Positions 11,501-32,030 of a DNA stretch of 40,290 nt are shown one piece after another. The notes under the pieces were generated by a model. That model did not search any database and was not told the origin of the DNA. It was given only the letters and a program-made list of their open reading frames with translations. The translations under genes were made by a program, and so were the position numbers. The stretch covers positions 1-40,290 of the forward strand of contig CAZLQA010000001.1 of assembly GCA_964561665.1 (NCBI GenBank). Direction: 5' to 3'. This stretch comes from Candidatus Woesearchaeota archaeon (GTDB lineage: Archaea > Nanobdellota > Nanobdellia > Pacearchaeales > GW2011-AR1). Position 1 is the stretch's first letter. Each line of letters opens with the position of its first letter.

Positions 11501-13138
11501 TTATTTCCTATTTTTTCCCAAACTCTCAAAACCTTCCTTTGCAACCATCAATCCGAGAAGGAACATTCCTACAGAGATTATCGCAAGAACATAATTGCCT
11601 GAGAAGAAATAGCCTTCTGCTCTGAATGTCAAATACAAAAGCGCGCTCAGGGTGGTAACAAGGACAAAAAGCGCAGGTATGATTATAAATTTGACATTTA
11701 TTTTTTTTGAGATGAAAAATGCGGAAACAGTAATCATGGTTATCGCCGCTGTTAGCTGGTTTGACGTTCCAAACAAGCGCCAGAGAGTTTCATAAGAATT
11801 TGTAACTGCAAGAAGCCACGATGGAATTAAAATCATCAAAGTTATCAGGATTTTTCTTTTTTTTAGTTTTGGAATGAGGTTTTCAGCAATTATGAACCTT
11901 GATAGCCTTGTTGAAGTATCTACGGATGTTAAAATAAACTGATTAACCATGAATGCTCCAAGCAATCCCGCAATAGAAATTGTGATTAAAGGAATTCCTA
12001 AGTTTCCGACAATGTTTCCGTATCCCGAGGAGAAAAGAACAATCCATCCTTTTCCAAGTTCTGCCTGGAATCCTCCGACAATTTCAGAACCCCATTTCAA
12101 GCCCGCAACAGCCATGAGTGTTACAAGAATTGCAAGTGTTGCTTCTCCGAGCATTGAGCCATATCCCACAGGTTTAGCATCGGACTCTTTTGAAAGTTGC
12201 TTGCTTGTCGTGCCACTAGAGACAATTCCATGAAAACCTGAAACTGCGCCGCATGCAACTGTTATGAACAAAATTGGCCAAAGTGGAAAAACTGAATTTG
12301 AAATATACGCAGGGGCGTTGATTATCGGGTTTATAATTAGTATCCCCACAATTCCCAAAACAAGAATCAATGACATTTGTATTGCGCTAAGATAATCTCT
12401 TGGCCTCAAAAGAATCCAGACGGGAACTACCGAGGCTATTCCTGCATATCCCAGAATTGCGGTAATTGCCAGATTTTTTAAAAGAACATCGCTGATTGAA
12501 AACTGCGGGGGATTCATTACTCCAACCCACACTGAAAGAAAAATGATTATTATTGCAATTACCGAAGCTAATTTGTAATTCCATTTGTATTTTTCAACGC
12601 CCAAACCAAGAACGACTGCAACAAAAGTTATTGTCAATAAAGGTATTATCAAATCCGGCTTGTTTACAATGCTTTCTGCCGCTGAAACCGAGAAAACCGT
12701 GATGATTAAAATTAATGTTATAAGAATCATTACTCCAAACAGCAACCCTGATTTTGAGTTAAGGGATTTTTTTGCTATTGATGAAACACTTTCCGCCTTG
12801 CTTCTTACCGAAGCTATTAAAGATGTGAAATCGTGCATCGCACCTATTAGCACACTTCCCAAAGAAACCCAAAGAACAACGGGAAGCCATCCGAAATAAC
12901 TTACAGCAAGTATCGGTCCAATAATGGGTCCTGCGCCTGCTATTGAAGCAAAATGATGTCCTATGAGAAAAGGTTTGTTTGAAGGTGAAAAGTCAACATT
13001 ATCTCTTTTTGTAATGGCAGGAGTTTTATTTTTATCAGAAATTTTCAGCTGTTTTTCAATAAATCTCCCGTAAATTTTGTAGCCAAGAAAAAACCACACT
13101 GCAATTATCAGGACAATCCAGATTGAATTCATTTTCAC
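11501..13138 (-). CDS. cstA: Carbon starvation protein CstA family transporter
   Basis: This 545-aa polytopic membrane protein has an N-terminus (..GYKIYGRFIEK.. HHFASIAGAGPIIGP) typical of CstA. Confidence 0.9.
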   Translation of the reverse strand: MKMNSIWIVLIIAVWFFLGYKIYGRFIEKQLKISDKNKTPAITKRDNVDFSPSNKPFLIGHHFASIAGAGPIIGPILAVSYFGWLPVVLWVSLGSVLIGAMHDFTSLIASVRSKAESVSSIAKKSLNSKSGLLFGVMILITLILIITVFSVSAAESIVNKPDLIIPLLTITFVAVVLGLGVEKYKWNYKLASVIAIIIIFLSVWVGVMNPPQFSISDVLLKNLAITAILGYAGIASVVPVWILLRPRDYLSAIQMSLILVLGIVGILIINPIINAPAYISNSVFPLWPILFITVACGAVSGFHGIVSSGTTSKQLSKESDAKPVGYGSMLGEATLAILVTLMAVAGLKWGSEIVGGFQAELGKGWIVLFSSGYGNIVGNLGIPLITISIAGLLGAFMVNQFILTSVDTSTRLSRFIIAENLIPKLKKRKILITLMILIPSWLLAVTNSYETLWRLFGTSNQLTAAITMITVSAFFISKKINVKFIIIPALFVLVTTLSALLYLTFRAEGYFFSGNYVLAIISVGMFLLGLMVAKEGFESLGKNRK

Positions 13139-13787: not shown

Positions 13788-13991
13788 ATGAAAAAAAGGG
13801 GCGGCGAAAAGAAATATCTAAAAATTTCGGGGACAATTTTCCTTGTCGTGGGAGCATTGCATCTCATTAGGGTTTTAATGGGGTGGAACGTAATGATTGA
13901 AAACCAGATTGTTCCACTATGGCTTAGCGCCATTGCAGTTGTGGTTCTTGGACTCTTGGGAACAAAACTAGTCAAGATGGGTTGCGAGTAA
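13788..13991 (+). CDS. Small membrane protein (67 aa, 2 TM)
   Basis: The only support is the hydrophobic ORF from the track. Confidence 0.5.
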   Translation: MKKRGGEKKYLKISGTIFLVVGALHLIRVLMGWNVMIENQIVPLWLSAIAVVVLGLLGTKLVKMGCE

Positions 13992-14008
13992 AATTAAGAA
14001 ACCAATAG

Positions 14009-14137
14009 TTAAAGATATTCTAGAATTTTGATTTTTCCGCTTTTTATCAGCTTTGGCGAAAGCCCGTTCAGATAAGTTATTACAATTCTTCCCGTGGGCA
14101 TCTTAACCCTGCATTTGGTTTTATTCATAAGTATCAT
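14009..14137 (-). CDS. Speculative 42-aa ORF directly downstream of csp (MILMNKTKCRVKMPTGRIVITYLNGLSPKLIKSGKIKILEYL)
   Basis: My own translation. It starts 7 nt after the csp stop. It faintly resembles small beta-barrel ribosomal or S1-like proteins, but this is not assignable. Confidence 0.2.
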   Translation of the reverse strand: MILMNKTKCRVKMPTGRIVITYLNGLSPKLIKSGKIKILEYL

Positions 14138-14143
14138 TTGCGC

Positions 14144-14335
14144 TTAACCTTTCTTTACCTTGACAGCCTTCAAACCCCTGTCGCCCTTCTCAACTTCAAA
14201 GCTTACCTTGTCGCCCTTGTCTACATTAACGCCATCTTCAAGCCCGCTCTTATGGACGAAATATTCCTTGCCGTCTTCTCCGATTATAAAGCCAAATTCC
14301 TTAATCTCGTTGAAAAACTTTACGTTTCCTTTCAT
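14144..14335 (-). CDS. csp: Cold-shock domain protein (CspA family)
   Basis: MKGNVKFFNEIKEFGFI..DGKEYFVHKSGL contains the RNP1/RNP2-like motifs (KGFGFI / VFVH type) of bacterial-type CSD proteins. Confidence 0.9.
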   Translation of the reverse strand: MKGNVKFFNEIKEFGFIIGEDGKEYFVHKSGLEDGVNVDKGDKVSFEVEKGDRGLKAVKVKKG

Positions 14336-14442
14336 TTTGTTGTTTTGAAAAAATTTAACAAACGCAATTTTATTAGAATTCGTTAACTAATTCAATAGAA
14401 AGTATAGCAAAAAATCCTTTTTAAAGGTATGTTATATAAAAA

Positions 14443-14514
14443 CGCCCGTGCCGGGAATCGAACCCGGGTTTCCAGCGCGACAGGCTAGCGTCATAGCCGT
14501 TAGACCACACGAGC
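14443..14514 (-). tRNA. tRNA-Asp (anticodon GUC)
   Basis: Hand fold: acceptor GCUCGUG/CACGGGC, anticodon stem CUAGC/GCUGG with loop CUGUCGC, T arm CCGGG-UUCGAUU-CCCGG. Length is 72 nt. Confidence 0.9.
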
Positions 14515-14581
14515 ATAAAGTTAATTATTTTGATTTACTTTTAAAGGTTTCTGGCTTAAAAAATTTTTGAACTTGAAAAAA

Positions 14582-14854
14582 TTATTTTACCTTGATATCC
14601 AGCAACTTGTTGTAAATCACTGCAAAAAGCCATGTCAGAAATCCGCAAATTAAAAAACCCAAGACGGCAGAGAAAAACATTATTTTCACCACGCTCATTG
14701 TTGTGAATCCAACAACGCCGTAAACATTTGTCATAAGGTTGTTGTAATAAGGAAGATACTTCAAAACAAGAAACAGCTCAAAGAGTAAAACAGAAACCAC
14801 GCTTATGATTCCTCCCGTGATTCCGAATTTTATACGATTTAGCTTGTTTTCCAT
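14582..14854 (-). CDS. Small membrane protein (~90 aa, 3 TM)
   Basis: ORF 14582..14869. The ATG at 14854 (MENKLNRIKFG..) is preferred over the GTG at 14869. Confidence 0.5.
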   Translation of the reverse strand: MENKLNRIKFGITGGIISVVSVLLFELFLVLKYLPYYNNLMTNVYGVVGFTTMSVVKIMFFSAVLGFLICGFLTWLFAVIYNKLLDIKVK

Positions 14855-14910
14855 TTTTAAACAAACCACTCATCTTTTAAAAATGTTGATATTTTTAATG
14901 ACTTTTGTTT

Positions 14911-15185
14911 AAGAAGCAGTTTCTGTTTAAAGTGGTTTGCCTTATCTCTTCTCCCGACCCCGCTCGGAATTAATAGTTTAAATTTGCCATTCGCAAAGTC
15001 GCTCTACTCGCACCCGCACTCATTATTAACTAAAAATTGCCTCGTGCAAATGCTCGGCTCACAATTGATGAAAAATTAACTAATAGAAAAACAACTTTTA
15101 TATTAACAACCTTTACCGATAAGCGAACGCAGTGAGCCATCTCATTTAATAATTTAATAAAAATAAGTAAGTTCTAAACAAAGCC
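14911..15185 (+). repeat. Dispersed mosaic repeat, copy B (longest copy, contains an internal module duplication)
   Basis: It carries all the modules: left end aagcagtttctgtttaaagtggtttgcc, ggaattaatagtttaaatttg, tcgcaaagtcgctc / tcgtgcaaatgctcggctcacaattgatgaaaaattaac, ttttatattaacaa..ataagcgaacgcagtgagcc, and right end aaaataagtaagttctaaacaaagcc. Confidence 0.85.
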
Positions 15186-15230
15186 TATTCTAATGATTTT
15201 AAAATCATTAAAGCATCTCCCTTTCTCATT

Positions 15231-15332
15231 TCAAATCAATGTCCTTATTATTCCATATACCAATAATCCCAACGCAACAAAGCCTATAACCCACGCAATA
15301 ATTTGTAGCAGTTTTAAGGTGTGTTTTTTCAT
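15231..15332 (-). CDS. 33-aa single-TM ORF translationally coupled to serS (MKKHTLKLLQIIAWVIGFVALGLLVYGIIRTLI)
   Basis: My own translation. Its ATG overlaps the serS TGA as ATGA (15329-15332). Confidence 0.35.
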   Translation of the reverse strand: MKKHTLKLLQIIAWVIGFVALGLLVYGIIRTLI

Positions 15333-16615
15333 TTTCTTTTAATCTTCTCGGATTTTATAATTTTTTTCCCGCCCATGTATTTTTGCAAAACTTTCGGGAT
15401 TTTAACAGAGCCGTCTTTCTGCTGGTGATTTTCAAGGATTGCAACCAATGCCCTCGAAGTTGCAATCGCGGTGTTGTTCAGCGTGTGAGGAGTTATTCTC
15501 TGCCCTTTTATCCTCGTTGAAATCCCCAGCTTTCTTGCCTGGGCACCAGTAAGATTGCTGCACGAGCCGACTTCAAAATATTTCTTCTGCCTCGGACTCC
15601 ACGCCTCGACATCAATCTGCTCGTATTTTAAATCCCCCAAGTCTCCGGAGCATATTTTAAGAACCCTTATGGGAACCTCAAGATTTTTGAAAATCTCAAC
15701 GGTAATTTTTTTCATTTCCTCAAAAAACTTCTCCGACTCTTCAGGAAGACATATCACAATCATCTCTATTTTGTTGAATTGGTGCGTCCTGAACAGCCCC
15801 TTTTCATCAACTCCGTGGCTTCCTATTTCCTTCCTGAAGCACATGGAATAGCTCGTGTGTTTTATCGGGAGCTTTTTTTCATCCATTTCCTGGTTTGCAA
15901 ATCTCCCTATAAGCGAGTGCTCCGAAGTGCCTATGAGGGAAACATCGTCGTTTTTTATCCTGTAAATCATAATCTCCTGGTCATTCAGGTCGGTAACCTG
16001 GTTTATGATTTCATTCTTCAGCATCAGGGGAGTTTCAATGTACCTGAACCCTTTCTTAACCATAAAATCCCTTGCGTAGTTTATCAAAGCCATGTTAAGG
16101 AGCGCAAGCTCCCCCTCAAGATAATAAAATCCCGTGCCGGAAACTCTCGCAGAGGAATCAAAATCCGCCATGTTCAAGCCCTCCGCAATTTCGGCATGGC
16201 TCTTCACTGGAAAAGTTTTCTTTTTCGGCTTTCCGTAAACTTTCTCAACCTTGTTCCCCGAATCGTCCTTTCCTATGGGAACCCTTTTGGAAATTATATT
16301 AGGAATTTTGTAAATTCCAAACTTCAGTTTTTCATAAGCCTCTTTCTCCTTTTCCTGAATCTTCTCAAGTTTTTTTGGAATTTCCCTCGCTTTTTTAATC
16401 AAAAAATCAACAGGTTTCTTGTTTTTCTTTGCAAGGTTTATCTCCTCCGAAATCTTGTTTCTCTCGCTTCTTATGTTGTCTGATTTCAGTTTAAGTTCCC
16501 TCCACAAAGAATCAAGCTTCAGCACCTCGTCAACCATCTCCGGACTGCGGAATTTTTTCCTCAGCACCTCTTTGTAAACCTCGGGATTTTCCCTTAAATG
16601 TTTTATATCAATCAT
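15329..16615 (-). CDS. serS: Seryl-tRNA synthetase
   Basis: 428 aa with an N-terminal coiled-coil arm and class II motifs (..FRKEIGSHG.., GSCSNLTGAQARKL, ..LNNTAIATSRALVAILEN). Confidence 0.95.
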   Translation of the reverse strand: MIDIKHLRENPEVYKEVLRKKFRSPEMVDEVLKLDSLWRELKLKSDNIRSERNKISEEINLAKKNKKPVDFLIKKAREIPKKLEKIQEKEKEAYEKLKFGIYKIPNIISKRVPIGKDDSGNKVEKVYGKPKKKTFPVKSHAEIAEGLNMADFDSSARVSGTGFYYLEGELALLNMALINYARDFMVKKGFRYIETPLMLKNEIINQVTDLNDQEIMIYRIKNDDVSLIGTSEHSLIGRFANQEMDEKKLPIKHTSYSMCFRKEIGSHGVDEKGLFRTHQFNKIEMIVICLPEESEKFFEEMKKITVEIFKNLEVPIRVLKICSGDLGDLKYEQIDVEAWSPRQKKYFEVGSCSNLTGAQARKLGISTRIKGQRITPHTLNNTAIATSRALVAILENHQQKDGSVKIPKVLQKYMGGKKIIKSEKIKRK

Positions 16616-19532: not shown

Positions 19533-20492
19533 ATGACGAGTGAAATTTGGACTGAAAAATACCGCCCGCAAAAATTTTCCGAGATGTTCGGGCAGGATGA
19601 AGTGATAAAAAGGGTTCACTCCCTCACAAATACGTTAAACATCCCCCATCTGCTTCTTGCAGGCCCCGCCGGAACGGGAAAGTCTACCCTTGCGCTGGTT
19701 ATTGTCAGGGAGCTGTACAGGGAAAGGTGGAAGGAAAACTTTCTTGAGCTTAATGCGAGCGATGAACGCGGGATTCAGGTTGTCAGGGAAAAGGTGAAAA
19801 CTTTCGCGAGGACAAAATCCCTCGGCAGTGTTCCCTTCAAGATAATTTTTATGGATGAGGCGGATGCCCTCACTCCTGAAGCCCAGCAGGCTCTAAGAAG
19901 AACCATGGAAAACTACTCCTCTACCTGCAGGTTCATTCTCTCGTGCAATTATTCAAGCAAGATAATAGACCCAATCCAATCGCGATGCATCCTTTTCAGG
20001 TTCAAGCTTTTGGAAAAAAAAGACGTGGAAAAGGTAATCAAGATAATTTCCGAGAAGGAAAAGCTGAACGTCAGTCCCGATGCGATGGAAATCATATACG
20101 AAGGCAGCGACGGGGACTGCAGAAAATGCATAAACATGCTGCAGTCAACGGCATCAATATCCCCTGTGATAACAAAAGAACTGGTGTCCACGATTCTTTC
20201 GGAAGCAAAGCCGCAGGACATAAGAACCGTGCTCGACTATGCAATATCAGGGGATTTTGAGAAGTCAAGGGAAAAGCTTTTCGACATAATGCTGAAGCAA
20301 AGCATATCTGGGCAGGAGATAATAAAATTCATCCAGAAAGAAATATGGAATCTCCCGGTGGAGCCAGAACTTAAAGTAAGGCTTACTGAAAAAACGGGCG
20401 AGGCGGAGTTCAGGATTATAGAGGGCTCTGACCCCTTTATTCAACTGCAGGCGCTGATTGCAAGTTTTGTTCTTGCAGGTTTGGGAAAATGA
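19533..20492 (+). CDS. rfcS: Replication factor C small subunit
   Basis: It has WTEKYRP (RFC box II), Walker A GPAGTGKST, DEAD-like FMDEADALT and the SRC motif (IQSRC). Confidence 0.95.
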   Translation: MTSEIWTEKYRPQKFSEMFGQDEVIKRVHSLTNTLNIPHLLLAGPAGTGKSTLALVIVRELYRERWKENFLELNASDERGIQVVREKVKTFARTKSLGSVPFKIIFMDEADALTPEAQQALRRTMENYSSTCRFILSCNYSSKIIDPIQSRCILFRFKLLEKKDVEKVIKIISEKEKLNVSPDAMEIIYEGSDGDCRKCINMLQSTASISPVITKELVSTILSEAKPQDIRTVLDYAISGDFEKSREKLFDIMLKQSISGQEIIKFIQKEIWNLPVEPELKVRLTEKTGEAEFRIIEGSDPFIQLQALIASFVLAGLGK

Positions 20493-20686
20493 AATTAAAA
20501 AGGAGGGCTGGTTATTGTGGAAAAACTTTCAGAACAATTCTGCGATTTCCCCGGGGGCAATTGGAAATCGCCGTTCAGTGCTTTGAATGGACTGGAAAGA
20601 AAGTTTGTGACTTTGTCGAGGTGCGTAAAAAAGTCACCGTTCAACAATTTGAGGAAGTTGAAAAGAAACCAGCGGGTTTCTTTTAA
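20489..20686 (+). CDS. Uncertain 65-aa ORF filling the rfcS-rfcL spacer
   Basis: Its ATG overlaps the rfcS TGA (ATGA), and its stop TAA abuts the rfcL ATG. A second frame is also open: GTG about 20516 to TGA 20688-20690, 57 aa, with aaggaggg upstream. The coding frame is therefore ambiguous. Confidence 0.3.
   Translation: MKLKRRAGYCGKTFRTILRFPRGQLEIAVQCFEWTGKKVCDFVEVRKKVTVQQFEEVEKKPAGFF
20542..20571 (+). other. Perfect 9-bp-stem hairpin inside the rfcS-rfcL spacer
   Basis: gcgatttcc - ccgggggcaatt - ggaaatcgc. Confidence 0.6.
20663..20684 (+). terminator. Terminator/attenuator-like hairpin plus T-run immediately upstream of the rfcL ATG
   Basis: aagaaacc-agcg-ggtttctt (8-bp stem, 4-nt loop) is followed by tt and then aaATG of rfcL. 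Confidence 0.4.
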
Positions 20687-21886
20687 ATGAACTGGACTGA
20701 AAAATACCGCCCTAAAATTTTTTCAGAAATTGTGGGGCAGGAAGAGGCAGTTGCAAAAGTTAAAAAATTCGTAGAGGATTTTCACTCCGGAAAATCCGCG
20801 AAAAGGAGGAAAAAAGCCCTTTTTCTTCATGGCTCACCCGGCACGGGAAAGACAACCATTGCATTTGCAGCTGCAAACGAGACAAACTCCGAGATTTTTG
20901 AATTGAACGCGAGCGATTTGAGAAATAAAATTAACCTGCAGGAAGTTTTAAGGCCCGCAGTTGAACAGCAGTCTCTCCTTAAAAAGAAAAAGATAATTTT
21001 AATCGATGAAGTTGACGGAATATCCGGTTTTTATGATAAGGGAGGTATTCTCGAGATTTTATCCCTTATAGAAGTTACTTCTTATCCAGTAATCATAACT
21101 GCAAACGACCCATGGGTTAAGAAGCTAAGCACTTTAAGAAAAAAAACAGAGATGATTAAGCTAAAGGAAATAAACTACAAAGTCATAAAGGATGTTCTCA
21201 TAGAAATTTTAAGAAAAGAAAATAAATTCCTTAACAATAATATCCTTACAGAAATCTCAATAAAGTCCCGCGGTGACTTGAGGGCTGCAATAAACGACTT
21301 GCAAAGGGAAGCCTCCCTGAAAAGCCTCGAAACCTCTCCCGTTTTGGATGAAAGGAACAAGGAAGGAGACATATTCAACGCGCTAAGAAGTGTATTCAAA
21401 GGAAAGCCAAGCAACGAAATTCTCGGGATTTTTGATTCGCTAAACATGGGAATTGACGAAGTGATGCTGTGGATTGAAAAGAACATTCCCTTGGAATATC
21501 ATGGAAAGGAATTGGAAAGGGCTTTCGATTTGCTGAGCAAGGCGGACGTTTTCAAGGGAAGAATATACAAGCAGCAATACTGGAGATTTTTGGTTTATGA
21601 AAACATATTTCTTAGTTATGGAATATCTTCCTCAAAAAATCCCTCGCGGGTTCCCCAGGGATTCACAAGCTACCAAAAACCCGACAGGATTCTTAAAATA
21701 TGGATAAATAATCAAAAAATCATCAGAAAAAAAGCAATCGCAGAAAAATACGCAAGATATGTTCACATAGGGAAAAAAAGAGCCGAGAGGGAATTCCCCA
21801 TGGTTGTGAAAATCCTGAAAAAGCCGGAAGTCCAGAAAGAAATAAAACTCAATGAAGAAGAGGTTGAGTATTTGAGGGAGATTTGA
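20687..21886 (+). CDS. rfcL: Replication factor C large subunit
   Basis: It has WTEKYRPK, Walker A GSPGTGKTT and Walker B ILIDEVDG. The 399-aa length and position directly after rfcS also fit. Confidence 0.9.
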   Translation: MNWTEKYRPKIFSEIVGQEEAVAKVKKFVEDFHSGKSAKRRKKALFLHGSPGTGKTTIAFAAANETNSEIFELNASDLRNKINLQEVLRPAVEQQSLLKKKKIILIDEVDGISGFYDKGGILEILSLIEVTSYPVIITANDPWVKKLSTLRKKTEMIKLKEINYKVIKDVLIEILRKENKFLNNNILTEISIKSRGDLRAAINDLQREASLKSLETSPVLDERNKEGDIFNALRSVFKGKPSNEILGIFDSLNMGIDEVMLWIEKNIPLEYHGKELERAFDLLSKADVFKGRIYKQQYWRFLVYENIFLSYGISSSKNPSRVPQGFTSYQKPDRILKIWINNQKIIRKKAIAEKYARYVHIGKKRAEREFPMVVKILKKPEVQKEIKLNEEEVEYLREI

Positions 21887-21897
21887 GAACAGCAATA

Positions 21898-22055
21898 TGG
21901 CTTTGTTAAAAAAATTCCAAATTGATTTGGTTTGTTAAAAAAAATGGCTCACTCCTCCGTCGTTCGTATATTAATAACAATTTTAATCCAAACCTAGTTA
22001 TTTTTTCATCAATTGTGAAGCCGAGATAAGGCGAACCAATTTTAAACAGAAACTC
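21898..22055 (-). repeat. Dispersed mosaic repeat, copy F (inverted orientation, both ends present)
   Basis: ggctttgttaaaaaaa.. is the inverted right end. atggctcactcctccgtcgttcgtatatt is the inverted core (28/29 to copy C). tagttattttttcatcaattgtgaagccgag is the inverse of ctcggctcacaattgatgaaaaattaacta. taaggcgaaccaattttaaacagaaac is the inverted left end of copy B. Confidence 0.8.
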
Positions 22056-22111
22056 TTATCAGACAAAATTACAATAATAAACTATTAAAACATCTCTCTC
22101 TATTCCCTATT

Positions 22112-22681
22112 ATGTCTTATGATATTCAGCTCGGAAGAAACAAGTCGGACAAGAAGCTGTTCGGGGAAAGGGGGTTTGTTTTCCTTGGAAAAAGCTATGT
22201 AAAAATGGGGCAGTATGATTCCCTGAGCAACAGGATTTTAATGGACATTTCAAGAAGCCACGTGGTTCTCGTCGCTGGAAAAAGAGGCTCCGGAAAATCA
22301 TACACCCTCGGCGTGATAGCGGAGGAGCTCTCAAATCTGGAAAAGGAAACAAGCCAAAACATCGCCTCTTTGTTTTTTGACACCATGGGAATTTATTGGA
22401 CGATGAAGTTCCAGAATGAAAAAGACAAGGACTTGCTTTACGAGTGGGGGCTGAAGCCAAAAACGCTGCCTGTAAAAATTTTCGTGCCTTTCGGGCATTA
22501 CCAGTCCTACGTTGAAAAAAGAATTCCCGTTGACGAGCCTTTTGCCCTAGATGTCACTGAATTAGAGGCGGAAGATTGGATTATAACTTTCGGATTGGAC
22601 ATGATTCATCCCGTATCTGTCTTGATTGAAAGAATAACAAGCCGCTTGAAAAAAGAGGGCAGATTTACAATAAGAGATTGA
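22112..22681 (+). CDS. HerA/DUF87-type P-loop ATPase, N-terminal segment (ends at an in-frame TGA)
   Basis: Walker A is present (VAGKRGSGKSYTLG). The ORF ends ..GRFTIRD-TGA at 22679-22681. Confidence 0.75.
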   Translation: MSYDIQLGRNKSDKKLFGERGFVFLGKSYVKMGQYDSLSNRILMDISRSHVVLVAGKRGSGKSYTLGVIAEELSNLEKETSQNIASLFFDTMGIYWTMKFQNEKDKDLLYEWGLKPKTLPVKIFVPFGHYQSYVEKRIPVDEPFALDVTELEAEDWIITFGLDMIHPVSVLIERITSRLKKEGRFTIRD

Positions 22682-22741
22682 ATAAAAAATATTGAAGATG
22701 ACGGAAAATCCTCCGTTGAAACAAAAAGCGCCGCCGCAGGA

Positions 22742-23422
22742 TTGTTTGAAGCCGCGGAAACGTGGGGAATTTTCTCGGAGAAGGCGGAGGAATCCACAAG
22801 AATAGAGGAGTTGGTTTCGGGAGGAAAAACAAGCGTTTTGGACTTGAGTGTTTACAATTCGATAGGGAGCTTCAACGTCCGCGCGCTCGTGATAAGCCTT
22901 GTCTCAAGAAAAATCTTCAACCAAAGAATGAATGCAAGAAAAAAAGAGGAAGTAAAGTCGGTTTCGGGCGGTTTTGATTTTTCTGCATCCTCTGAAAAAA
23001 AGGAAAGCCCACTCGTATGGATTTTTATCGACGAAGCCCATGAGTTTCTTCCTTTGAACGAAAAAACAGCCGCAACAGACGCGCTCGTGCAGTTGCTAAG
23101 AGAAGGAAGGCAGCCGGGAGTTTCAGTTGTTCTTGCAACGCAGCAGCCCGGGCAGATTCACAGGGACGTGATGACTCAGTCGGACATTGTAATCTCTCAC
23201 AGAGTCACAAGCCAGCAGGACCTGGAAGCCCTGAACCAGATAATGCAAAGTTATCTTATCGAAAACATAAAAAAATACATGGACGAACTCCCAGATATAA
23301 GAGGCTCTGCGATAATACTCGACGACAACTCGGAGAGGATTTACCCCGTGAAGATACGCCCGAGATTCACATGGCACGGGGGCGAGGCGCCTACCGCAAT
23401 AAACGCTGAAAAAAGGATTTAA
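22742..23422 (+). CDS. HerA/DUF87-type P-loop ATPase, C-terminal segment, in the same frame as 22112..22681
   Basis: The frame is open from 22682 (IKNIEDDGKSSVETKSAAAGLFEAAETWGIF..). Walker B is VWIFIDEAHEF, followed by ATQQPG and ISHRVTS motifs. There is no in-frame ATG or SD near the 5' end; the tracked start is a TTG. Confidence 0.75.
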   Translation: MFEAAETWGIFSEKAEESTRIEELVSGGKTSVLDLSVYNSIGSFNVRALVISLVSRKIFNQRMNARKKEEVKSVSGGFDFSASSEKKESPLVWIFIDEAHEFLPLNEKTAATDALVQLLREGRQPGVSVVLATQQPGQIHRDVMTQSDIVISHRVTSQQDLEALNQIMQSYLIENIKKYMDELPDIRGSAIILDDNSERIYPVKIRPRFTWHGGEAPTAINAEKRI

Positions 23423-23533
23423 TTTAAACTACTTTAAAGTAACTACAAACAGAAAGATTTATAAAGTTTGGGCATTTATGAATTCTATCTTAGCAATCAT
23501 AATATTGGTGATGAAAAGGAAGTAAAATAAAAA

Positions 23534-24019
23534 ATGAAAAACTTGATGAGAAAATTGGGTGTGGGCGCATTGATAACAGCAGGAGCCCTGTATTTGGGCG
23601 CGTGTGGCGACAATGACCATTCTTCAATGAGATTAAAGGGAAGAGATTATGTGGGAACTATAGAATTGGTAATCCAGGAAAAATTGCCTGATGGAAGGGA
23701 ATACAAGATTTTCAAATTAACTCCTGAAAACGTGCGCGAGCATCCTTATGCAATTGTTTCAATAGAAAATGGAGAGCAAAAAAGGTTTGTAACTCCCTAT
23801 GGAATAGGTCCTGTAAAAATAAAATGTGAACCTCAGGGAACTCAGATGGATTACAGTTGCAATTTTGATCCAGAAAACATTTTCATTAAAAGAGAAGATG
23901 CTCTTGGACGAGAAATAAAATTGTATTTGGATGAAAATAAAGGAAAAATAATGGGAATAAGCGATAGAATAACTAATGTTTTAAATACCTCTGCCCCACA
24001 TTTGTGGTTAAGTAAGTAA
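23534..24019 (+). CDS. Predicted secreted lipoprotein (161 aa)
   Basis: It has a signal peptide with a lipobox-like LYLGAC-GD (MKNLMRKLGVGALITAGALYLGACGDN). I recognise no family. Confidence 0.6.
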   Translation: MKNLMRKLGVGALITAGALYLGACGDNDHSSMRLKGRDYVGTIELVIQEKLPDGREYKIFKLTPENVREHPYAIVSIENGEQKRFVTPYGIGPVKIKCEPQGTQMDYSCNFDPENIFIKREDALGREIKLYLDENKGKIMGISDRITNVLNTSAPHLWLSK

Positions 24020-24027
24020 AATTAAAA

Positions 24028-24216
24028 ATGGCAAAAACATTGGGCAATATCGCGGGATTTCCTGAAAACAGCGAAAGAGAATCAAAAGACATCATAAACT
24101 ACCCGCCTGAAAATGAAAGCAAGGTTATGGGTAATCTTCTTATTTTATCAATGGCAGCAGGAGTATTTGGGATGGTAGCAAAGCTTTTATACAAAACAAC
24201 AGATTATCTTAATTAA
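24028..24216 (+). CDS. Small tail-anchored membrane protein (62 aa, one C-terminal TM)
   Basis: It has an acidic N-terminus followed by VMGNLLILSMAAGVFGMVAKLLY. It starts 8 nt after the lipoprotein gene. Confidence 0.5.
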   Translation: MAKTLGNIAGFPENSERESKDIINYPPENESKVMGNLLILSMAAGVFGMVAKLLYKTTDYLN

Positions 24217-24217
24217 A

Positions 24218-24508
24218 ATGAGATTAGAAGATATTAAACTGCCTGAAACGGCTACCGAAAAAGAACTTCTTGGGTTAGGAGCAATAAAAAAAGGAGATAT
24301 TTTCTTTTATGAAGACGGAATTAATGGGGTAACTGCAGGATGGAGAAGAGGAAGTGATGGCACTTATTACCTTTCCTATAAAGGAGTAGTTTCACAACCC
24401 AATCTAGAAAGTTCCGGAAGTCCAACAGGAAAGGAGATATATCCTCTAAGAAAACCTCCTGAATTCAAAGAAGACCAAAGGGAGCCAACAAAAAAACGCC
24501 CATTTTAA
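24218..24508 (+). CDS. Small soluble protein, paralog 1 of a tandem triplet (96 aa)
   Basis: IKLPETATEKELLGLGAIKKGDIFFYEDGINGVTAGWRR... There is a 1-nt gap to the previous gene. Confidence 0.55.
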   Translation: MRLEDIKLPETATEKELLGLGAIKKGDIFFYEDGINGVTAGWRRGSDGTYYLSYKGVVSQPNLESSGSPTGKEIYPLRKPPEFKEDQREPTKKRPF

Positions 24509-24509
24509 A

Positions 24510-24722
24510 ATGAACCTTGAAAAATCCTCAGAAGAAAGCATGGAAAAAGTTCCCAGAACAGCAACGGCAAGAGACCTTTTAAAATTAGGAGCAAGAATAA
24601 TAAATGTCTTAGGTGATAGAGCATATCAGGATTCTAAAACATACGCGATAGTTGTTTTTAAAAAAATTAAAGGTGGGGTTTACGAAAGGATTTTTGTCGG
24701 AACTCCAAGCCATCATGACTAA
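24510..24722 (+). CDS. Small soluble protein, paralog 2 of the tandem triplet (70 aa)
   Basis: KVPRTATARDLLKLGARIINVLGDRAYQDSKTYAIVVFKK... There is a 1-nt gap to paralog 1. Confidence 0.55.
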   Translation: MNLEKSSEESMEKVPRTATARDLLKLGARIINVLGDRAYQDSKTYAIVVFKKIKGGVYERIFVGTPSHHD

Positions 24723-24743
24723 TCATAAAATATTAAATCAAAA

Positions 24744-24995
24744 ATGAGCTCAAAAAGTTTGGAAAAAACAAGCAAATCTTCCAGAGTGGTTAAATTGCCT
24801 CAAATATCCACAGAAGAACAACTTCTTGGATTAGGCGCTGTAAGAGACGGTTACGGAATGAAATATGAAAATCCTGCTTTAGGTGTGATTGTATATTGGA
24901 GAAGATTATTAAATGAAAGAAATGAAAGTTTAGAAGCCACAAACTTATATGTATTTTCTCATCAAGAACCTATGAAAAAAAGCACTCTCCACTAA
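24744..24995 (+). CDS. Small soluble protein, paralog 3 of the tandem triplet (83 aa)
   Basis: VKLPQISTEEQLLGLGAVRDGYGMKYENPALGVIVYWRR... DNA-level similarity to paralog 1 is visible (caacttcttggattaggcgct vs gaacttcttgggttaggagca). Confidence 0.55.
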   Translation: MSSKSLEKTSKSSRVVKLPQISTEEQLLGLGAVRDGYGMKYENPALGVIVYWRRLLNERNESLEATNLYVFSHQEPMKKSTLH

Positions 24996-25889
24996 CTATA
25001 AAATCTTCAAGTCAACCCTTACCCTGAATTTGTAAGGCGCAATTTCACCCGCTTTTTTGAAATTAAGGATTTTAATTTTCTTTTTTGATTTTTTTGCTTC
25101 ATCAAGAATTCTTTCCCTAACAGAATCAATCTCGTCATCCTTTGCAAAATCATAGTAAAAAATCCTTGTCCCTTTTTTGCTTAAGAAAAAAGCCTCTTTA
25201 AGAAAACTTTCCTTCAACTGGGGACGGGGCATAACAATCACGTCGTATTTTTTTGGGATTTCCTGCAAGTTTAATCGGCTCGCTAACACTCGCCTATTTC
25301 TTTGATTCTTGATGTTAACCATCTGATTTGTTTTTTTATCAACATAATTCTTACCAATCTGCGAATGTGAATAAGCGGCTAATCTCTTAACACCTCCCTG
25401 AATCACCTGAACCTTATCCTCAACTTTATTCAGCTTAGAATTAAGCTTCGCATACCTGCCCGCTTCTCTATTAATCTCGATGCTTGTAACTTTCCCCGCA
25501 GGCGAATTTCTTGCAATGACAATTCCATAAGGATTTATACCCGAAAACATCACAAGCACGTTCTCGTTTCTTTTTATTTTTCCGGAGATTTCCGCCCTCT
25601 CGCTGCTTAACCTAGGGGAGAAGTATGTTGAATCCACATTAAACCTGAAAATGCATCCGTTTTCCCTGTAAAGAGCTTCTTTTGTCTTAACACCAAGAAT
25701 CCACCTCGTTTTCTGCTTTCTCAAACGTCCTTTAAATCGCGAGGTTTTCTCAAGAACTGTCCTTACAGACTTATACTGCCTAAGGATTTTTTCGGCTATT
25801 TTTTTCTTTTCATTTGCCTTTGATTCTCTTGGAAATTTTAAAATTGCAATATTTCCCATAATGTCAATTCCCGATGGTTTTTTGCCCAT
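24996..25889 (-). CDS. Trm5/Taw2-like (Met-10+) tRNA methyltransferase carrying a ~43-aa internal insertion
   Basis: It has IDIMGNIAILKF, FRFNVDSTYFSPRLSSER, VLVMFSGINPYGI (SAM motif I region) and DVIVMPRP (the NLP-type motif IV position). Confidence 0.8.
   Translation of the reverse strand: MGKKPSGIDIMGNIAILKFPRESKANEKKKIAEKILRQYKSVRTVLEKTSRFKGRLRKQKTRWILGVKTKEALYRENGCIFRFNVDSTYFSPRLSSERAEISGKIKRNENVLVMFSGINPYGIVIARNSPAGKVTSIEINREAGRYAKLNSKLNKVEDKVQVIQGGVKRLAAYSHSQIGKNYVDKKTNQMVNIKNQRNRRVLASRLNLQEIPKKYDVIVMPRPQLKESFLKEAFFLSKKGTRIFYYDFAKDDEIDSVRERILDEAKKSKKKIKILNFKKAGEIAPYKFRVRVDLKIL
25254..25382 (+). repeat. Repeat-family-like sequence inserted in frame inside the Trm5-like gene
   Basis: On the + strand, ..cggctcgctaacactcgcc..tttgattcttgatgttaacc..tgtttttttatcaacataattcttaccaatctgcgaatgtgaataagcgg aligns at roughly 70 percent by eye with copies A and B (ggctca..atttatgaaaaaattaac..tgttttatgctaacattattatcaataagcgaacgcagtgagcc). 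Confidence 0.55.
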
Positions 25890-28098: not shown

Positions 28099-28575
28099 TT
28101 AATACGCTTCTCCGCTCCAGCGCTGATTTCGTGATTGTATTTCAGCATAAGCTTTGGGAAGTTTTTCTCCAAGCAAACAATCCATCTCTTTCTGGATATC
28201 TTCGAGATAGCTCCAAGCGGCACCCCTGGACATGTTTCTAAAGCCTTTCAAGACAGGATATCCCATATGCATAAGCTCTGAAAGCCTTTCTTTTATCTCT
28301 TTTATGTAAATTCTTTCACCTCTTTCCTGAGGAGCAAAAGGCATCAAGGCAACTCTTGCAATGATTTCCAACGCATTTAAATCATTTTCATAATCAACAG
28401 GTCTTGGTCTTCTTCCTGATTTTCTTTTTTTTCTTGCATCAAGGGGTGTCTCAGCTTGTAAAAAATATGCTTCAAAACCTCCTGCTCTTTTGAGAATAGC
28501 ATCTGCTAAAGCCATGCCTCTTCTCCCACCTGTTTCGTGAGTATCTTTATCAACGTCATAATTTATTCTTCCCAT
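28099..28575 (-). CDS. Hypothetical protein (158 aa), upstream of fen1 and divergent from polB
   Basis: ORF from the track. It has a basic linker (KKRKSGRRPRP). I recognise no family. Confidence 0.5.
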   Translation of the reverse strand: MGRINYDVDKDTHETGGRRGMALADAILKRAGGFEAYFLQAETPLDARKKRKSGRRPRPVDYENDLNALEIIARVALMPFAPQERGERIYIKEIKERLSELMHMGYPVLKGFRNMSRGAAWSYLEDIQKEMDCLLGEKLPKAYAEIQSRNQRWSGEAY

Positions 28576-28647: not shown

Positions 28648-31146
28648 ATGATGAAAACAGAATTCATTCCGATAGATTATGACTATTTTGATTTTGAAGG
28701 CAAAAATTTTGCAAGGGTAATAGGAAGAAACCCGCAAGGCAAAAGAATTTGCATTATTGACTCCTGCGATGTTTATTTTTGGGCAATTCTTAAAAACGGA
28801 TTAAGCGAGAGAAAAACAAAAAATCTGATTGAAAAAATCGAGAAAATAAAGCTCGACATAAAGGGGCGGAACACTATAGTCGAGAAAGTCGAGATTCACA
28901 AAAAGAATTTCCTAGGAAAACCCGTAAAAGCCCTGAAAATTTTCGCCACAAACTACAAGGACCTGCATGACATTGCGGACAAGCTCGGTTTTGAAGAGAT
29001 TGAGAAAAGAAGGGGCTACGATTTGGGATTCATAACTCATTACATAATCGAAAAAAAAATGGTTCCCATGCACTGGTATGAGATTGAAGGCGAAGTTTTG
29101 AGCAATTCCCAGGAATTCGGCGGAATTGACTCAGTTCTTGACGTTGACTTATGCATAAACCTCAAGGAGTTCAAAGAGATTGATGAAAAAAAGTTCGCTC
29201 CAAAAGTTCTCGCCTACGACATTGAAACCGATGAATTGGAAATTGGAAAAGGCGAGATTTTGATGATTTCTTTTGTATCTGAAGAATTTAAAAAAGTCAT
29301 AACATGGAAAAAACCGGCAAAAAAAATGGAGCACAAAATTCCCGTTGAATACGTGAAAAATGAGGAGGAAATGTTGAAAAAATTTGCGGAGTATGTGAAA
29401 AAAATCTCTCCTGATTTTCTTGTGGGGTATTTCTCGGACGGCTTTGACCTTCCGTACATCAAGGCGCGCGCGGACAAGCTTGAAATAAAAATTCCTCTGG
29501 GACTTGACGATTCCTCTCCAAAGTTTTCCAGGGGAGGATTTGCAGGAAGCATGACGGGGAAAATAAAAGGAATAGTCCATCTGGATATCCTGAAGTTCAT
29601 AAGAACGGCGTATTCTCAGTACATGCAGTCGGAAACCCTTTCATTGAATGAGGTTTCAAATGAATTTCTTGGGGAGGGAAAGAAAGATTTTGTTTTCCAG
29701 CACTCTTCAAAAATCTCCGACGAGAATTGGGAAAAGTATTTTGAATACAATCTCCATGATTCTGCGCTTGTCTTCAGGCTGTTTGAAAAAGTTTGGTACG
29801 ATATCATTGGATTCTCAAGGGTAATGCAGGAGCCTATTTTTGAAGTTTCAAGGAACGGCATGTCAAAAAATGTGGAATCATACATCCTTCACAATCTTGA
29901 CAAGTTCGGGGAAATCCCGGAGAAAAAGCCGACACACGGGGAAATAGCGGAGAGAAGATACATGGAAAAATATGAAGGGGCTTTTGTTTTCGAGCCTATT
30001 CCCGGAATATACGAAAACATAGCGGTTTTTGATTTTACAAGCAGTTACGGAAGCGTTATTGTGACTTATAATCTTTCAAAATCCACTTTTGTGGGGAAGA
30101 ATCTTAATAAAATTCAGGGAAAGAACACACATCATGTTGAAACAAACGGGGAAAATCTTTACTTCAGCAAGAAAGAGGGGTTTTTTCCTGAAATGCTTAA
30201 GGAAATAATAGAAAAAAGGAAAAAATACAAGCAGGAATTAAAAACCTCCTCGAGCGCAGATGACGCGATAAAAAAAGCAAGAAGCAATGCGTATAAACTT
30301 CTTGCAAATGCATCCTATGGTTACCAGGGATTCTTCGGGGCGAGGTACTATTGCAGGGAAGCCGCAGCCGCAACCGCGGGATTTGCAAAAAAGTCCATAC
30401 ATGATGCAATAAAAAACATTGATAAGGGAGGTTACAAAACAATTTATTCCGACACGGATAGCATTGCTTTTCTCCTCAGCGGAAAAACGGAAAAGCAAAC
30501 CGTTGAGTTCCTTGACAATCTTAATTCAAAGCTTCCGGGAATAATGGAACTTGAACTTGAAGGATTTTTTTCCAGAGGGTTGTGGGTGACAAAACGCTCG
30601 GGCAATCTGGGGGCAAAGAAAAAATACGCTTTAATAGACAAGGACAAAAGGATAAAAATCCGCGGATTCGAAACAGTAAGAAGGGACTGGTGCGCGCTTG
30701 CAAGAAAAGTCCAAAATACAGTCATAAAGCAGGTTTTGGAGGATGGAAACGGGGAAAAAGCGCTGAAATACGTAAAAGAAATAATAATAAAAATAAAAAA
30801 GAGGGAAATAGAAAAAAAGGATTTGATAATAAAAACCCAGCTAAAAAAGCCGCTTGAGGAATACAAGGCAATCTCGCCGCATGTGATTGCCGCAAGAAAA
30901 ATGCACGAAGCCAAGATTCCGATAAGTCAGGGAAATCTTGTTGAGTATTTTATAGCCGAATCCAAAGAGAAGAAAAAGCTCATAAGAGACAGGGTAAAGC
31001 TGCCTGACGAGAAAGGGGAATATGACATTGAGTATTATCTTGAGCACCAGATTCTTCCCGCAGTGGAAAACATATTTCAGGTGTTTAAAGTCAGTATAGA
31101 AGAAGTCATCGAAGGGAAAAAACAGACAAAGCTCGGGGATTTTTAA
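28648..31146 (+). CDS. polB: Family B DNA polymerase
   Basis: Exo I is AYDIETD and Exo II is FSDGFDLPYI. Pol A is DFTSSYGSVI, a variant of DFxSLYPSII. Pol B is KLLANASYGY and Pol C is YSDTDS. No intein is evident. Confidence 0.95.
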   Translation: MMKTEFIPIDYDYFDFEGKNFARVIGRNPQGKRICIIDSCDVYFWAILKNGLSERKTKNLIEKIEKIKLDIKGRNTIVEKVEIHKKNFLGKPVKALKIFATNYKDLHDIADKLGFEEIEKRRGYDLGFITHYIIEKKMVPMHWYEIEGEVLSNSQEFGGIDSVLDVDLCINLKEFKEIDEKKFAPKVLAYDIETDELEIGKGEILMISFVSEEFKKVITWKKPAKKMEHKIPVEYVKNEEEMLKKFAEYVKKISPDFLVGYFSDGFDLPYIKARADKLEIKIPLGLDDSSPKFSRGGFAGSMTGKIKGIVHLDILKFIRTAYSQYMQSETLSLNEVSNEFLGEGKKDFVFQHSSKISDENWEKYFEYNLHDSALVFRLFEKVWYDIIGFSRVMQEPIFEVSRNGMSKNVESYILHNLDKFGEIPEKKPTHGEIAERRYMEKYEGAFVFEPIPGIYENIAVFDFTSSYGSVIVTYNLSKSTFVGKNLNKIQGKNTHHVETNGENLYFSKKEGFFPEMLKEIIEKRKKYKQELKTSSSADDAIKKARSNAYKLLANASYGYQGFFGARYYCREAAAATAGFAKKSIHDAIKNIDKGGYKTIYSDTDSIAFLLSGKTEKQTVEFLDNLNSKLPGIMELELEGFFSRGLWVTKRSGNLGAKKKYALIDKDKRIKIRGFETVRRDWCALARKVQNTVIKQVLEDGNGEKALKYVKEIIIKIKKREIEKKDLIIKTQLKKPLEEYKAISPHVIAARKMHEAKIPISQGNLVEYFIAESKEKKKLIRDRVKLPDEKGEYDIEYYLEHQILPAVENIFQVFKVSIEEVIEGKKQTKLGDF

Positions 31147-31274: not shown

Positions 31275-32030
31275 CTACTCCAAAAACAGCAAAGCCGCCA
31301 TAACCAAAACTCCCGCAAGGATGGATAAAAACTGGAGAAATGATTTTCCCAATCCTTTTTCCTTATGAAGTTCAGGAATCAAGTCGCTACCTGCAAGATA
31401 AATGAATCCTCCTGCAGAAACGGGAATTATGAAAAACTGGATGTTTTCAACATAACTGCTTGCTATCAGGGAAGTCACCGCCCCTATTATTATAAACATC
31501 GAAGATAGGTAATTGAAAAGAAGGGCTTTTGATTTTGAGAACCCGCCGTGCACCAATACGCCAAACCATCCCAACTCTTTTGGAATTGCGTGGAATAAAA
31601 TTGCCATTGTAATTGCAATGCCCACCGGAATGCTTACCAAAAAACTAGCTCCCAGAACCAAGCCATCCAAAAGATTATGAAAACCCCCCCCAATAAGGCT
31701 CATTATTGCCAGAGGATGAGTATGCTCTTTTTCGTATTCTATAATGTTATGGTGCCAATGAACAACTTTTTCAAGGATAAAAAACAAGACTATTCCGCCA
31801 ATTACCAAGGACGAAACAAAAAAATTCAGTCCGCCCTTTTCCCTGACTATTTCCGGAAGCAAATGAAAAAAAGCCCCTCCAAACAGCGCTCCCGCCGAAA
31901 AACTCACAAAGTAAATAAGGGTTTTTTTCAATTTCTCAAACTTAAAAGGAACCAGAATTATTCCTATAAGCGCTATGAGGCTCAAAAGAAAAGCGCTTGC
32001 TAACGTATAAATCCAAACCTGATAAGCCAT
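31275..32030 (-). CDS. ZIP-family metal (zinc) transporter
   Basis: The 251-aa protein has about 8 TM segments, a His-rich loop (WHHNIIEYEKEHTHP) and a HNLLDG / HAIPKELG ZIP signature. Confidence 0.85.
   Translation of the reverse strand: MAYQVWIYTLASAFLLSLIALIGIILVPFKFEKLKKTLIYFVSFSAGALFGGAFFHLLPEIVREKGGLNFFVSSLVIGGIVLFFILEKVVHWHHNIIEYEKEHTHPLAIMSLIGGGFHNLLDGLVLGASFLVSIPVGIAITMAILFHAIPKELGWFGVLVHGGFSKSKALLFNYLSSMFIIIGAVTSLIASSYVENIQFFIIPVSAGGFIYLAGSDLIPELHKEKGLGKSFLQFLSILAGVLVMAALLFLE

Follow-up and report, generated by a model that had tools for sequence, protein, structure and literature searches.

The stretch of DNA analysed here, hereafter the window, spans 40,290 nucleotides (nt) of contig CAZLQA010000001.1 (GenBank assembly GCA_964561665.1), from a Candidatus Woesearchaeota archaeon, and carries a cassette of five small open reading frames (ORFs), g1 to g5, located between the gene of a HerA-like ATPase and trm5, the convergent gene of a tRNA methyltransferase (Table 1). 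The reading that we favour, with moderate confidence, is that this cassette is a lineage-specific, dispensable and fast-turnover accessory set, housed in a variable slot, with a role at the cell envelope, in host interaction or in conflict. Four lines of evidence bear on it: the variability of the slot across species, the narrow distribution of the family formed by g3, g4 and g5 (LGA), the composite structure of g3, whose tail resembles that of a second uncharacterised family (CPY), and the evolutionary rates of the genes concerned. Related loci are designated below by numbers with the prefix L.

A variable slot between two conserved genes

In a set with a single genome for each GTDB species, the HerA-like ATPase at the left boundary of the slot has at least 582 relatives, which are labelled Pacearchaeota, Woesearchaeota or Nanoarchaeota, the best 80 being 70–79% identical to it. 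In 69 of about 80 species loci, the ATPase gene and trm5 are convergent neighbours, and the slot counts given below refer to these 69 species. The length of the slot is 371 nt at the median (−6 to 2677 nt) and 1573 nt in the window (23423-24995). It is empty (60 nt or less) in 14 species and harbours a CPY-like gene in 20, always on the ATPase strand and often 25–70 nt after the ATPase stop codon, while an LGA gene is present in three; other slots contain ACP-like, nucleotidyltransferase/HEPN-like, GNAT, HAD, MaoC-like, RelE-like or toxin-antitoxin-like genes. Signs of mobility such as an integrase, a tRNA gene or repeats are absent from its flanks, and the sequence conservation of the ATPase is independent of what lies downstream. 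We interpret the herA/trm5 gap as a compact variable slot between two core genes. As to the co-occurrence of paralogs and ATPase, a question raised in a sequence-only reading of the window, every LGA gene with usable context lies downstream of the 436-residue ATPase and tail-to-tail (0 nt) with trm5, and LGA is present in only 3 of the 69 slots.

Three paralogs of a new small-protein family

The coordinates bear out the tight, co-oriented cluster of that reading, as the five ORFs share one strand and are separated by 8, 1, 1 and 21 nt. The last three, which lack any hydrophobic segment according to hydropathy, are indeed paralogs with a common motif, with pairwise BLASTP E-values of 9e-12 for g3/g5 (49% identity over 39 residues), 4e-5 for g3/g4 and 1e-4 for g4/g5. 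Their likeness is still visible in the DNA, where a 61-nt segment coding for the motif is 74% identical between g3 and g5 and 62% identical between g3 and g4.

Word-indexed searches of 5.8 billion proteins with the paralogs returned only themselves or near-identical proteins. When a profile of the three paralogs was run exhaustively with HMMER against 1.84 billion cluster representatives, about 11 genuine distant homologs of 55–88 residues were recovered, while two further matches (P0009 and P0013) were discarded as false positives, being repeat proteins. Searching again with a 13-member alignment added one further member, bringing the known family to about 14; a metagenome scan for further LGA loci yielded one short contig, and no LGA gene was found in IMG/VR. 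The hosts are Pacearchaeota/Woesearchaeota-type DPANN archaea, in which g5 has orthologs in L011, L012, L016, L017 and L018 (39–58% identity, E 1e-7 to 1e-23) and g4 in L018 (47% identity, E 1.6e-16). We define the LGA family by a length of 55–96 residues, an M-x-L-E start, the motif [LF]-P-x-x-[ST]-T-x-E-x-L-[LI]-x-[LI]-G-A and a location in the herA/trm5 slot; g3, g4 and g5 all fall within this definition and match the family profile with E-values of 6e-21, 9e-22 and 5e-30, respectively. The beta-rich segment of the family has an invariant Tyr plus a Trp or Phe, and the g5 type ends in a C-terminal [ST]-x-H. The net charge of this type is not conserved (isoelectric point, pI, 4.7–9.3).

An AlphaFold2 (AF2) model of g5 based on the 14-member LGA alignment reaches a mean pLDDT of 75 (80–91 in the core) and predicts the order strand, short helix, four strands (beta-alpha-beta4). 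When compared with PDB and BFVD using Foldseek, it has no match better than E 0.19, and a profile search of PDB returned nothing. As in the sequence-only reading, none of the five proteins could be assigned to a known family, g1 to g5 having no match in Pfam, NCBIfam, PADLOC or PHROGs, and a literature search (DPANN, HerA, Pacearchaeota) returned nothing describing this locus. A match of g4 to AAA_lid_7 (E 0.007, under the cut-off) was attributed to chance, and the matches of the LGA model to CdiI and RelE, with TM-scores of 0.35–0.38 and E-values above 2, are not significant. As to whether such short ORFs are coding at all, the invariant Thr, Gly, Ala and Pro residues of 10 LGA genes use all synonymous codons. 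Because of this variation and of the confident AF2 core, the LGA genes can be taken as still coding, which answers a doubt that accompanied the sequence-only reading.

The CPY family and the chimeric structure of g3

In relatives, LGA genes are preceded on their 5′ side by genes of the CPY family, which has no member in the window. CPY proteins are about 90–120 residues long and occur as tandem paralogs, A and B. Their alignment features an invariant Cys48, Cys55-Pro-Tyr and Cys80, with a fourth cysteine in an N-terminal C-E-M motif (overall pattern C-E-M...L-C-x6-C-P-Y...C-x-[ST]-x-G-L), an arrangement that may bind metal. Searches of Pfam, NCBIfam, PADLOC, PHROGs and PDB gave no match for CPY. 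The B paralogs carry a basic tail that terminates in R-x-F-COOH.

The g3 protein consists of an LGA domain (residues 1–58 approximately), closest to the g5 type, and of a tail (residues 74–96, 24437-24505) ending in KKRPF. Its last 23 residues (IYPLRKPPEFKEDQREPTKKRPF) are 48% identical to the tail of the CPY-B protein of L016 (IIQLREHPEFKVDTATSLRKRSF), with an E-value of 6e-5 for the full pairwise comparison. Moreover, g3 sits in the position of CPY-B, including the conserved TTT-TAA-A-ATG junction (1 nt) to the next LGA gene. We regard g3 as a chimera between an LGA domain and the C-terminal tail of a CPY-B protein. The idea that LGA would be a CPY protein devoid of cysteines was ruled out, since the CPY and LGA profiles are similar solely in the tail contributed by g3. 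The arginine codon of the tail is CGC in the window and AGA or AGG elsewhere, hence its conservation operates at the protein level. The R-x-F tail is found in all six of the six loci where an LGA gene follows, and is missing from the CPY proteins without an LGA neighbour. Because g3 keeps this tail and because of its presence in all LGA-followed loci, the tail and the LGA proteins would be linked in function, binding being the simplest possibility.

A conserved nucleotide context, TAAAATGAnnTTAGAA, marks the starts of LGA genes and usually overlaps the preceding stop codon as TAA-A-ATG. It is probably a signal for translational coupling or re-initiation, and it may in part lie behind the conserved M-x-L-E N-terminus.

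Fast evolution, pseudogenes and nonsense alleles

The ratio of nonsynonymous to synonymous differences (pN/pS) amounts to 0.5–0.9 for LGA and CPY and is below 0.2 for the HerA-like ATPase. Between the window and L012, the flanking genes (RFC-L, RFC-S, S10, HerA, Trm5) have a saturated pS of 0.79–0.87 and a pN of 0.10–0.26, whereas the pS of g5 orthologs reaches only 0.37–0.48, for a pN of 0.24–0.34. When this synonymous deficit was assessed by counting the codons that differ at identical residues, which controls for amino-acid composition, g5 showed 13 synonymous differences versus 27.1 expected from the flanks in the comparison with L012 and 6 versus 18.9 in that with L016 (in both cases, none of 20,000 simulations was as low), and 7 versus 12.9 in that with L017 (P = 0.004). 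No such deficit reached significance for CPY genes. Two explanations can be considered for the g5-type gene: an exchange among related lineages, which would make it younger than its flanks, or a constraint at the nucleotide level.

Sibling loci L001 to L010 are 99.7–100% identical to the window and have no comparative power. The single-nucleotide polymorphisms (SNPs) of the cassette in the Rifle population all fall in g3 (G19E, P69S, Q60* and one synonymous change); the contig carrying the Q60* allele (L007:1-1632) has its trm5 called as two ORFs of 78 and 216 residues. In the L012 species, which is marine, the g4-type gene is a pseudogene (L012:9770-9990; same in L013, L014, L015 and L019), in which a CAA (Gln) codon of the conserved motif has become TAA and the original stop codon has been lost. 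Otherwise, it retains 83% protein identity to the intact gene of L018, and truncated ORFs of 40 residues matching it are called in other assemblies of the L012 species.

The predicted exported protein g1 and membrane protein g2

The N-terminus of g1 (MKNLMRKLGVGALITAGALYLGAC) comprises a basic n-region and a hydrophobic core (KD17 1.76), followed by L-G-A-C. Written as MKNLMRK-LGVGALITAGALY-LGAC, it fits a lipobox at L(−3), A(−1) and C(+1), whereas Gly(−2) lies outside the strict [LVI][ASTVI][GAS]C set. The earlier prediction of a lipoprotein keeps its signal peptide and its L-G-A-C, at the price of this departure from the strict pattern. As for g2, its only hydrophobic segment (residues 33–54 approximately, 24124-24189, KD17 2.04) follows an acidic N-terminal part devoid of N-terminal signal, with lysines on its C-terminal side. 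The tail-anchored protein previously described is consistent with this single C-terminal transmembrane (TM) segment and the lack of a signal, but the charge pattern makes an N-out/C-in topology equally possible.

Word-indexed searches of 5.8 billion proteins found g1 only itself, and its one weak match is the positionally equivalent protein of L018 (E 5e-4, 21% identity over 137 residues, two Cys aligned). No homolog of g2 was found in Pfam, in NCBIfam or by homology comparison. Comparison of g1 with the CPY profile revealed no relationship, and the single-sequence AF2 model of g1 (pLDDT 32) was unusable. At the position of g1 and g2, L017 encodes a trypsin-like protease with a twin-arginine translocation (TAT) signal and a TM protein of 92 residues, while the slots of L020 and L031 encode a TM protein of 65 residues and a TAT-signal protein of 130 residues. 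Because such a trio of exported, TM and small soluble proteins recurs in the window, L017 and L020/L031, these slots hint at a functional module, by analogy rather than by homology.

The HerA-like ATPase

The five ORFs do lie directly after the ATPase gene, as previously stated, but this gene is interrupted in the window by an in-frame TGA (22679-22681, codon 190). Siblings L001, L002, L003 and L010 have TTA (Leu) at this codon and an intact gene of 436 residues. Stop-codon recoding is ruled out by this single SNP relative to the siblings, and we consider the TGA to be either an assembly error or a nonsense allele at the level of the strain. Four relatives of the ATPase (72–79% identity) align over all 436 columns with zero indels. 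In at least 13 loci, the ATPase gene starts 23–67 nt after the RFC large-subunit gene, in an operon-like arrangement, the spacer being 225 nt long in the window (RFC-large region 20687-22111). We take the ATPase to be a core gene, and its linkage with the RFC large subunit suggests a function in replication or repair.

NCBIfam HerA-type models match the ATPase partially and far under their cut-offs (NF040819, 40 bits versus 970; NF040937, 28 versus 800), the CedD model scores 29.4 bits versus a cut-off of 600 on the C-terminal half only, and the best PADLOC matches, mad8 (E 6.6e-22) and HerA models, are also partial. PDB HerA chains match it at E 1e-9. No HAS barrel was detected with Pfam and NCBIfam, and about 45 residues lie ahead of the Walker A motif.

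Coding support, promoters and genomic context

A codon model trained on the remaining genes of the window (log-likelihood range 0.146–0.499) ranked the annotated frame best for each of g1 to g5, with scores of 0.229 for g1, 0.389 for g2 and 0.037 for g5, the lowest of the five. The codon usage of g5 is thus atypical and under the range of the other genes. The probability of an ORF of 161 codons by chance is about 2e-5 per start (at 38% GC), and for g1 and g2 the case for coding is built on the length of the ORFs, their codon usage and features of their sequences. A sub-threshold SAM-III match inside g1 (Rfam, 24 bits versus 45) was taken as chance.

The box TTTATAAA (tttataaa) that had been proposed as the cassette's own A/T box is present at 23458-23465, 76 nt 5′ of the g1 ATG. 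Judging from about 26 upstream regions, most genes of the window have a TTTAWAWA-type box that begins 29 ± 3 nt 5′ of the ATG, a position which implies that leaderless mRNAs would predominate. Because the box of g1 lies at −76, the promoter role of tttataaa for g1 to g5 is doubtful. An A/T-rich TAAAATAA at 23523-23530 (−23 to Met5) would fit a leaderless start of g1 at Met5 (23546). The promoter may lie elsewhere, g1 may start at Met5, or the cassette may be transcribed by read-through from the ATPase gene. A scan for sigma-70 promoters and intrinsic terminators, models that do not apply to archaea, gave results at or under shuffle expectation. Between the ATPase gene and g1, 20 nt past the tttataaa box, lies a hydrophobic mini-ORF of 15 codons (MNSILAIIILVMKRK, 23478-23525).

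The window belongs to the core archaeal chromosome, with genes for ArgRS, IleRS, SerRS, S10, the small and large RFC subunits, Trm5, FEN1, PolB and Cdc48, and contigs identical to it, or nearly so, are known from metagenomes of Rifle groundwater. No mobility gene was found among the scanned ORFs, and no NurA, Mre11 or Rad50 domain among the 30 ORFs of the window that were scanned. Only two tRNAs exceed the Rfam threshold, the closest tRNAs being about 9 kb from the cassette. Directly 5′ of RFC-large, an ORF-like spacer of 65 codons (20489-20686) has a two-fold internal repeat (..EIAVQCFE.. / ..VTVQQFEE..), and an element with weak similarity to it (E 6e-4) is found immediately 5′ of the HerA-like gene in L012 (L012:7603-7800); the spacer may encode a small protein or represent a conserved element that is not translated. 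The family-B DNA polymerase (28648-31146) is a single ORF of 832 residues in the window and several siblings. In L002 (105-kb contig, 13908-16426), it is called as 135 plus 707 residues, a split that points to an assembly error or to a variant with a frameshift or nonsense change.

Table 1. Coordinates of the features discussed; positions without prefix refer to the window, those with an L prefix to related loci.
Feature	Location	Strand	Remarks
g1	23534-24019	+	161 residues
Cys24 of g1	23603-23605	+	Cys of the lipobox-like L-G-A-C; Sec-type signal peptide ahead
g2	24028-24216	+	62 residues
g3	24218-24508	+	96 residues
g4	24510-24722	+	70 residues
g5	24744-24995	+	83 residues; ends ...STLH; 0 nt to trm5 stop codon
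61-nt segment coding K-L-P-x-T-A-T-E-x-E-L-L-G-L-G-A	24234-24294 (reference); copies 24544-24604, 24790-24850	+	Repeat search
HerA/FtsK-superfamily ATPase	22112-23422	+	436 codons; left boundary of slot; Pfam DUF87, HerA_C and Zot on two halves
Trm5/TYW2-family tRNA methyltransferase	24996-25889	-	Pfam TRM5-TYW2_MTfase, E 1.7e-32; right boundary, convergent with cassette
TAAAATGAnnTTAGAA junction sites	24216-24220, 24506-24512; junctions of L011, L012, L016, L017, L018
CPY genes	L013:1731-2021, L013:2029-2328, L016:3568-4224, L017:2987-3298, L018:438-1064, and others
Further CPY genes	L020:3883-4155, L032:5472-5729, L097:8349-8621
g5-type genes compared	24744-24995; L012:10001-10243; L016:4235-4486; L017:3300-3515
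RFC-large-linked ATPase loci	L016, L020, L040, L041, L053, L060, L065, L069-L071, L076, L080, L093
Genes with TTTAWAWA box at -29 +/-3	6591-7271, 11501-13138, 15329-16615, 28099-28575, 28648-31146, 31275-32030

Discussion

Since the content of the slot varies while the conservation of the ATPase does not, g1 to g5 are probably not required parts of an ATPase machine, and because the cassette appears dispensable and quick to turn over, we favour an envelope, host-interaction or conflict character over that of ATPase subunits. According to this interpretation, g1 to g5 would be expressed as one unit, with g2, g3 and g4 translationally coupled via the TAA-A-ATG junctions. The envelope pair would consist of g1, exported and probably lipid-anchored, and of g2, a single-span membrane protein, whereas g3 to g5 would be cytoplasmic paralogs of a new small alpha/beta family, arisen by tandem duplication. 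In the case of g3, an LGA domain would have replaced the cysteine-rich domain of an older resident CPY-B, the basic R-x-F-COOH tail being kept. LGA proteins would probably act by protein-protein binding, the most likely partner being the R-x-F tail, and the cassette as a whole would turn over as genes are gained, lost, duplicated and possibly passed from one related lineage to another.

In several respects, the locus is comparable to flexible gene slots: two conserved flanks surround species-specific cargo, some slots are empty, and this cargo, in which ORFans, small enzymes and toxin-antitoxin-like genes are represented, changes rapidly and departs from the usual codon choice. Unlike them, the herA/trm5 slot bears no mobility signature, is tiny (0–2.7 kb) and recurrently hosts the same family, CPY. 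A few observations weigh against a mere accessory set. The cassette is always on the ATPase strand, and CPY starts so closely behind the ATPase gene in its 20 species that the arrangement looks as an operonic partnership would. The recurring trio of exported, small TM and small soluble proteins speaks for a module rather than random cargo. Comparative support for g1 and g2 is close to nil, with one weak match for the former and no homolog for the latter. Finally, the low synonymous divergence of g5 could stem from a DNA- or RNA-level constraint, such as an overlap with the convergent trm5 transcript.

Part of this evidence would also suit a direct partnership with the motor, in which CPY (ancestrally) and LGA (in this clade) would be accessory or adaptor subunits docking on a HerA-like hexamer, possibly by their conserved C-termini (R-x-F-COOH and [ST]-x-H-COOH), and modulating or targeting DNA translocation, with g1 and g2 as a membrane tether. 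HerA-family motors usually work with a partner encoded by a neighbouring gene, such as NurA, Sir2 or DUF4297, and the present locus likewise has co-oriented genes directly past a P-loop ATPase, as in the HerA-NurA, HerA-Sir2, HerA-DUF4297 and MADS (mad8) operons. Indeed, CPY and LGA are directly downstream of the ATPase and on its strand in every case, usually 25–70 nt past its stop codon for CPY; their C-terminal motifs are conserved, to the point that the tail is kept in the g3 chimera, and the tight translational coupling is typical of complexes. We nonetheless consider such subunits rather unlikely. The ATPase has a fixed length, and its best relatives remain 70–79% identical, whether the slot is empty or filled with CPY, LGA or unrelated genes, and LGA itself occurs in so few species. 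A pN/pS of 0.5–0.9 and pseudogenisation are ill-suited to subunits of a constrained core motor, as is the unconserved net charge of the g5 type, and the RFC linkage, which points to cytoplasmic DNA replication, is a poor fit with a lipoprotein and a TM partner. In comparison with the known operons, the ATPase is under every equivalog cut-off, without detected HAS barrel, and no nuclease, Sir2 or DUF4297 partner exists at the locus, its neighbours being RFC-large upstream and five ORFans plus trm5 downstream. Moreover, it is a core, RFC-linked gene in conserved synteny rather than an island gene, the downstream genes are not conserved with it, and neither g1 to g5 nor CPY has a match in PADLOC, in contrast to the anti-phage HerA systems (PADLOC, MADS).

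The conflict flavour perceived in the sequence-only reading is retained only in part, since fast evolution, duplication, chimera formation, nonsense alleles and patchiness agree with it, while no toxin or defence domain was detected. In its explicit form, this idea would make the cassette an effector-immunity module, with g1 as an exported effector, g2 as a membrane helper and g3 to g5 as immunity or neutralising proteins. The locus shares with polymorphic toxin/effector loci an exported protein followed by tandem, fast-diversifying small cytoplasmic paralogs, a chimeric gene formed by domain replacement and a patchy distribution; pseudogenes, nonsense alleles and possible signs of lateral exchange go in the same direction, as do the toxin-antitoxin-like genes of other slots and the secreted trypsin-like protease at the g1 position of L017. 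But g1 to g5 contain no recognisable toxin, nuclease, pore-forming or immunity domain, the fold predicted for LGA does not match any immunity protein significantly, and LGA genes also follow CPY without any exported protein nearby (L012 and L018), which makes an effector-immunity module very unlikely. We deem it highly improbable that the ORFs are non-functional, with g1 and g2 arisen by chance or decaying and g3 to g5 as relics heading for loss, even though g1 and g2 have next to no homologs, pN/pS is near 1 in some pairs, nonsense alleles and a pseudogene exist, and g5 falls under the codon-usage range of the other genes. Reading frames of 55–88 codons have been maintained across about 14 diverged LGA sequences, in DNA that is rich in A and T, with free synonymous variation at invariant residues and a confident AF2 core; the annotated frame is best for all five genes, an ORF as long as g1 would arise by chance with a probability of about 2e-5 per start, and the signal peptide, the lipobox and the TM segment are well formed.

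The link with a HerA motor that had been suggested at the outset, whether Ced-like, DNA-transfer or surface machine, finds no support in the comparison of genomes, the ATPase being a core gene in at least 582 species genomes, next to a slot that is empty in 14 of 69 species and occupied by LGA in 3. The Ced DNA-import system of Crenarchaeota is made of CedA, CedA1, CedA2 and CedB. A Ced-like or conjugation-like DNA transfer, in which a HerA/VirB4-type ATPase would drive a channel of small membrane proteins, would account for an ATPase of the HerA/FtsK superfamily adjoining small TM and exported proteins, as well as for its weak partial matches to CedD, VirB4, TraD and TrwB models. However, the CedD score is far under its cut-off (29 bits versus 600), the remaining matches are partial and due to the P-loop, and no TM-domain family is reported for the ATPase, which is not a CedB/CedD member and resides next to RFC genes in hundreds of genomes without these neighbours. 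Furthermore, most proteins of the cassette are soluble, apart from g2 with its single span and g1 with its signal peptide, and there is neither a polytopic CedA- or VirB6-like protein nor a relaxase, so that the comparison with Ced fails and DNA transfer, largely refuted, is hardly tenable.

A bolder variant of the motor partnership can be formulated, which we find unlikely. CPY and LGA would be swappable, fast-evolving partners of a universally conserved, RFC-linked HerA-like DNA motor of DPANN archaea, docking by their R-x-F-COOH and [ST]-x-H-COOH termini and exchanged by recombination at the slot (e.g., under virus or host pressure), with g1 and g2 as a link to the envelope. Under our preferred interpretation of a dispensable accessory set, the locus still adds LGA and CPY as two undescribed families of small proteins in DPANN archaea, as well as a compact variable site in a streamlined genome, at which duplication, domain replacement and pseudogenisation can be traced. 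The RFC-linked ATPase of 436 residues is itself an unstudied core gene of Pacearchaeota/Woesearchaeota, whose role probably matters more than that of the cassette. Should the small proteins not be partners of the motor, then g1 to g5 are ordinary lineage-specific ORFans; if they are exchangeable partners, they would offer a way to study the diversification of a core machine in reduced symbiotic archaea, and the swappable set would amount to a modular HerA system, not described before, in archaeal episymbionts.

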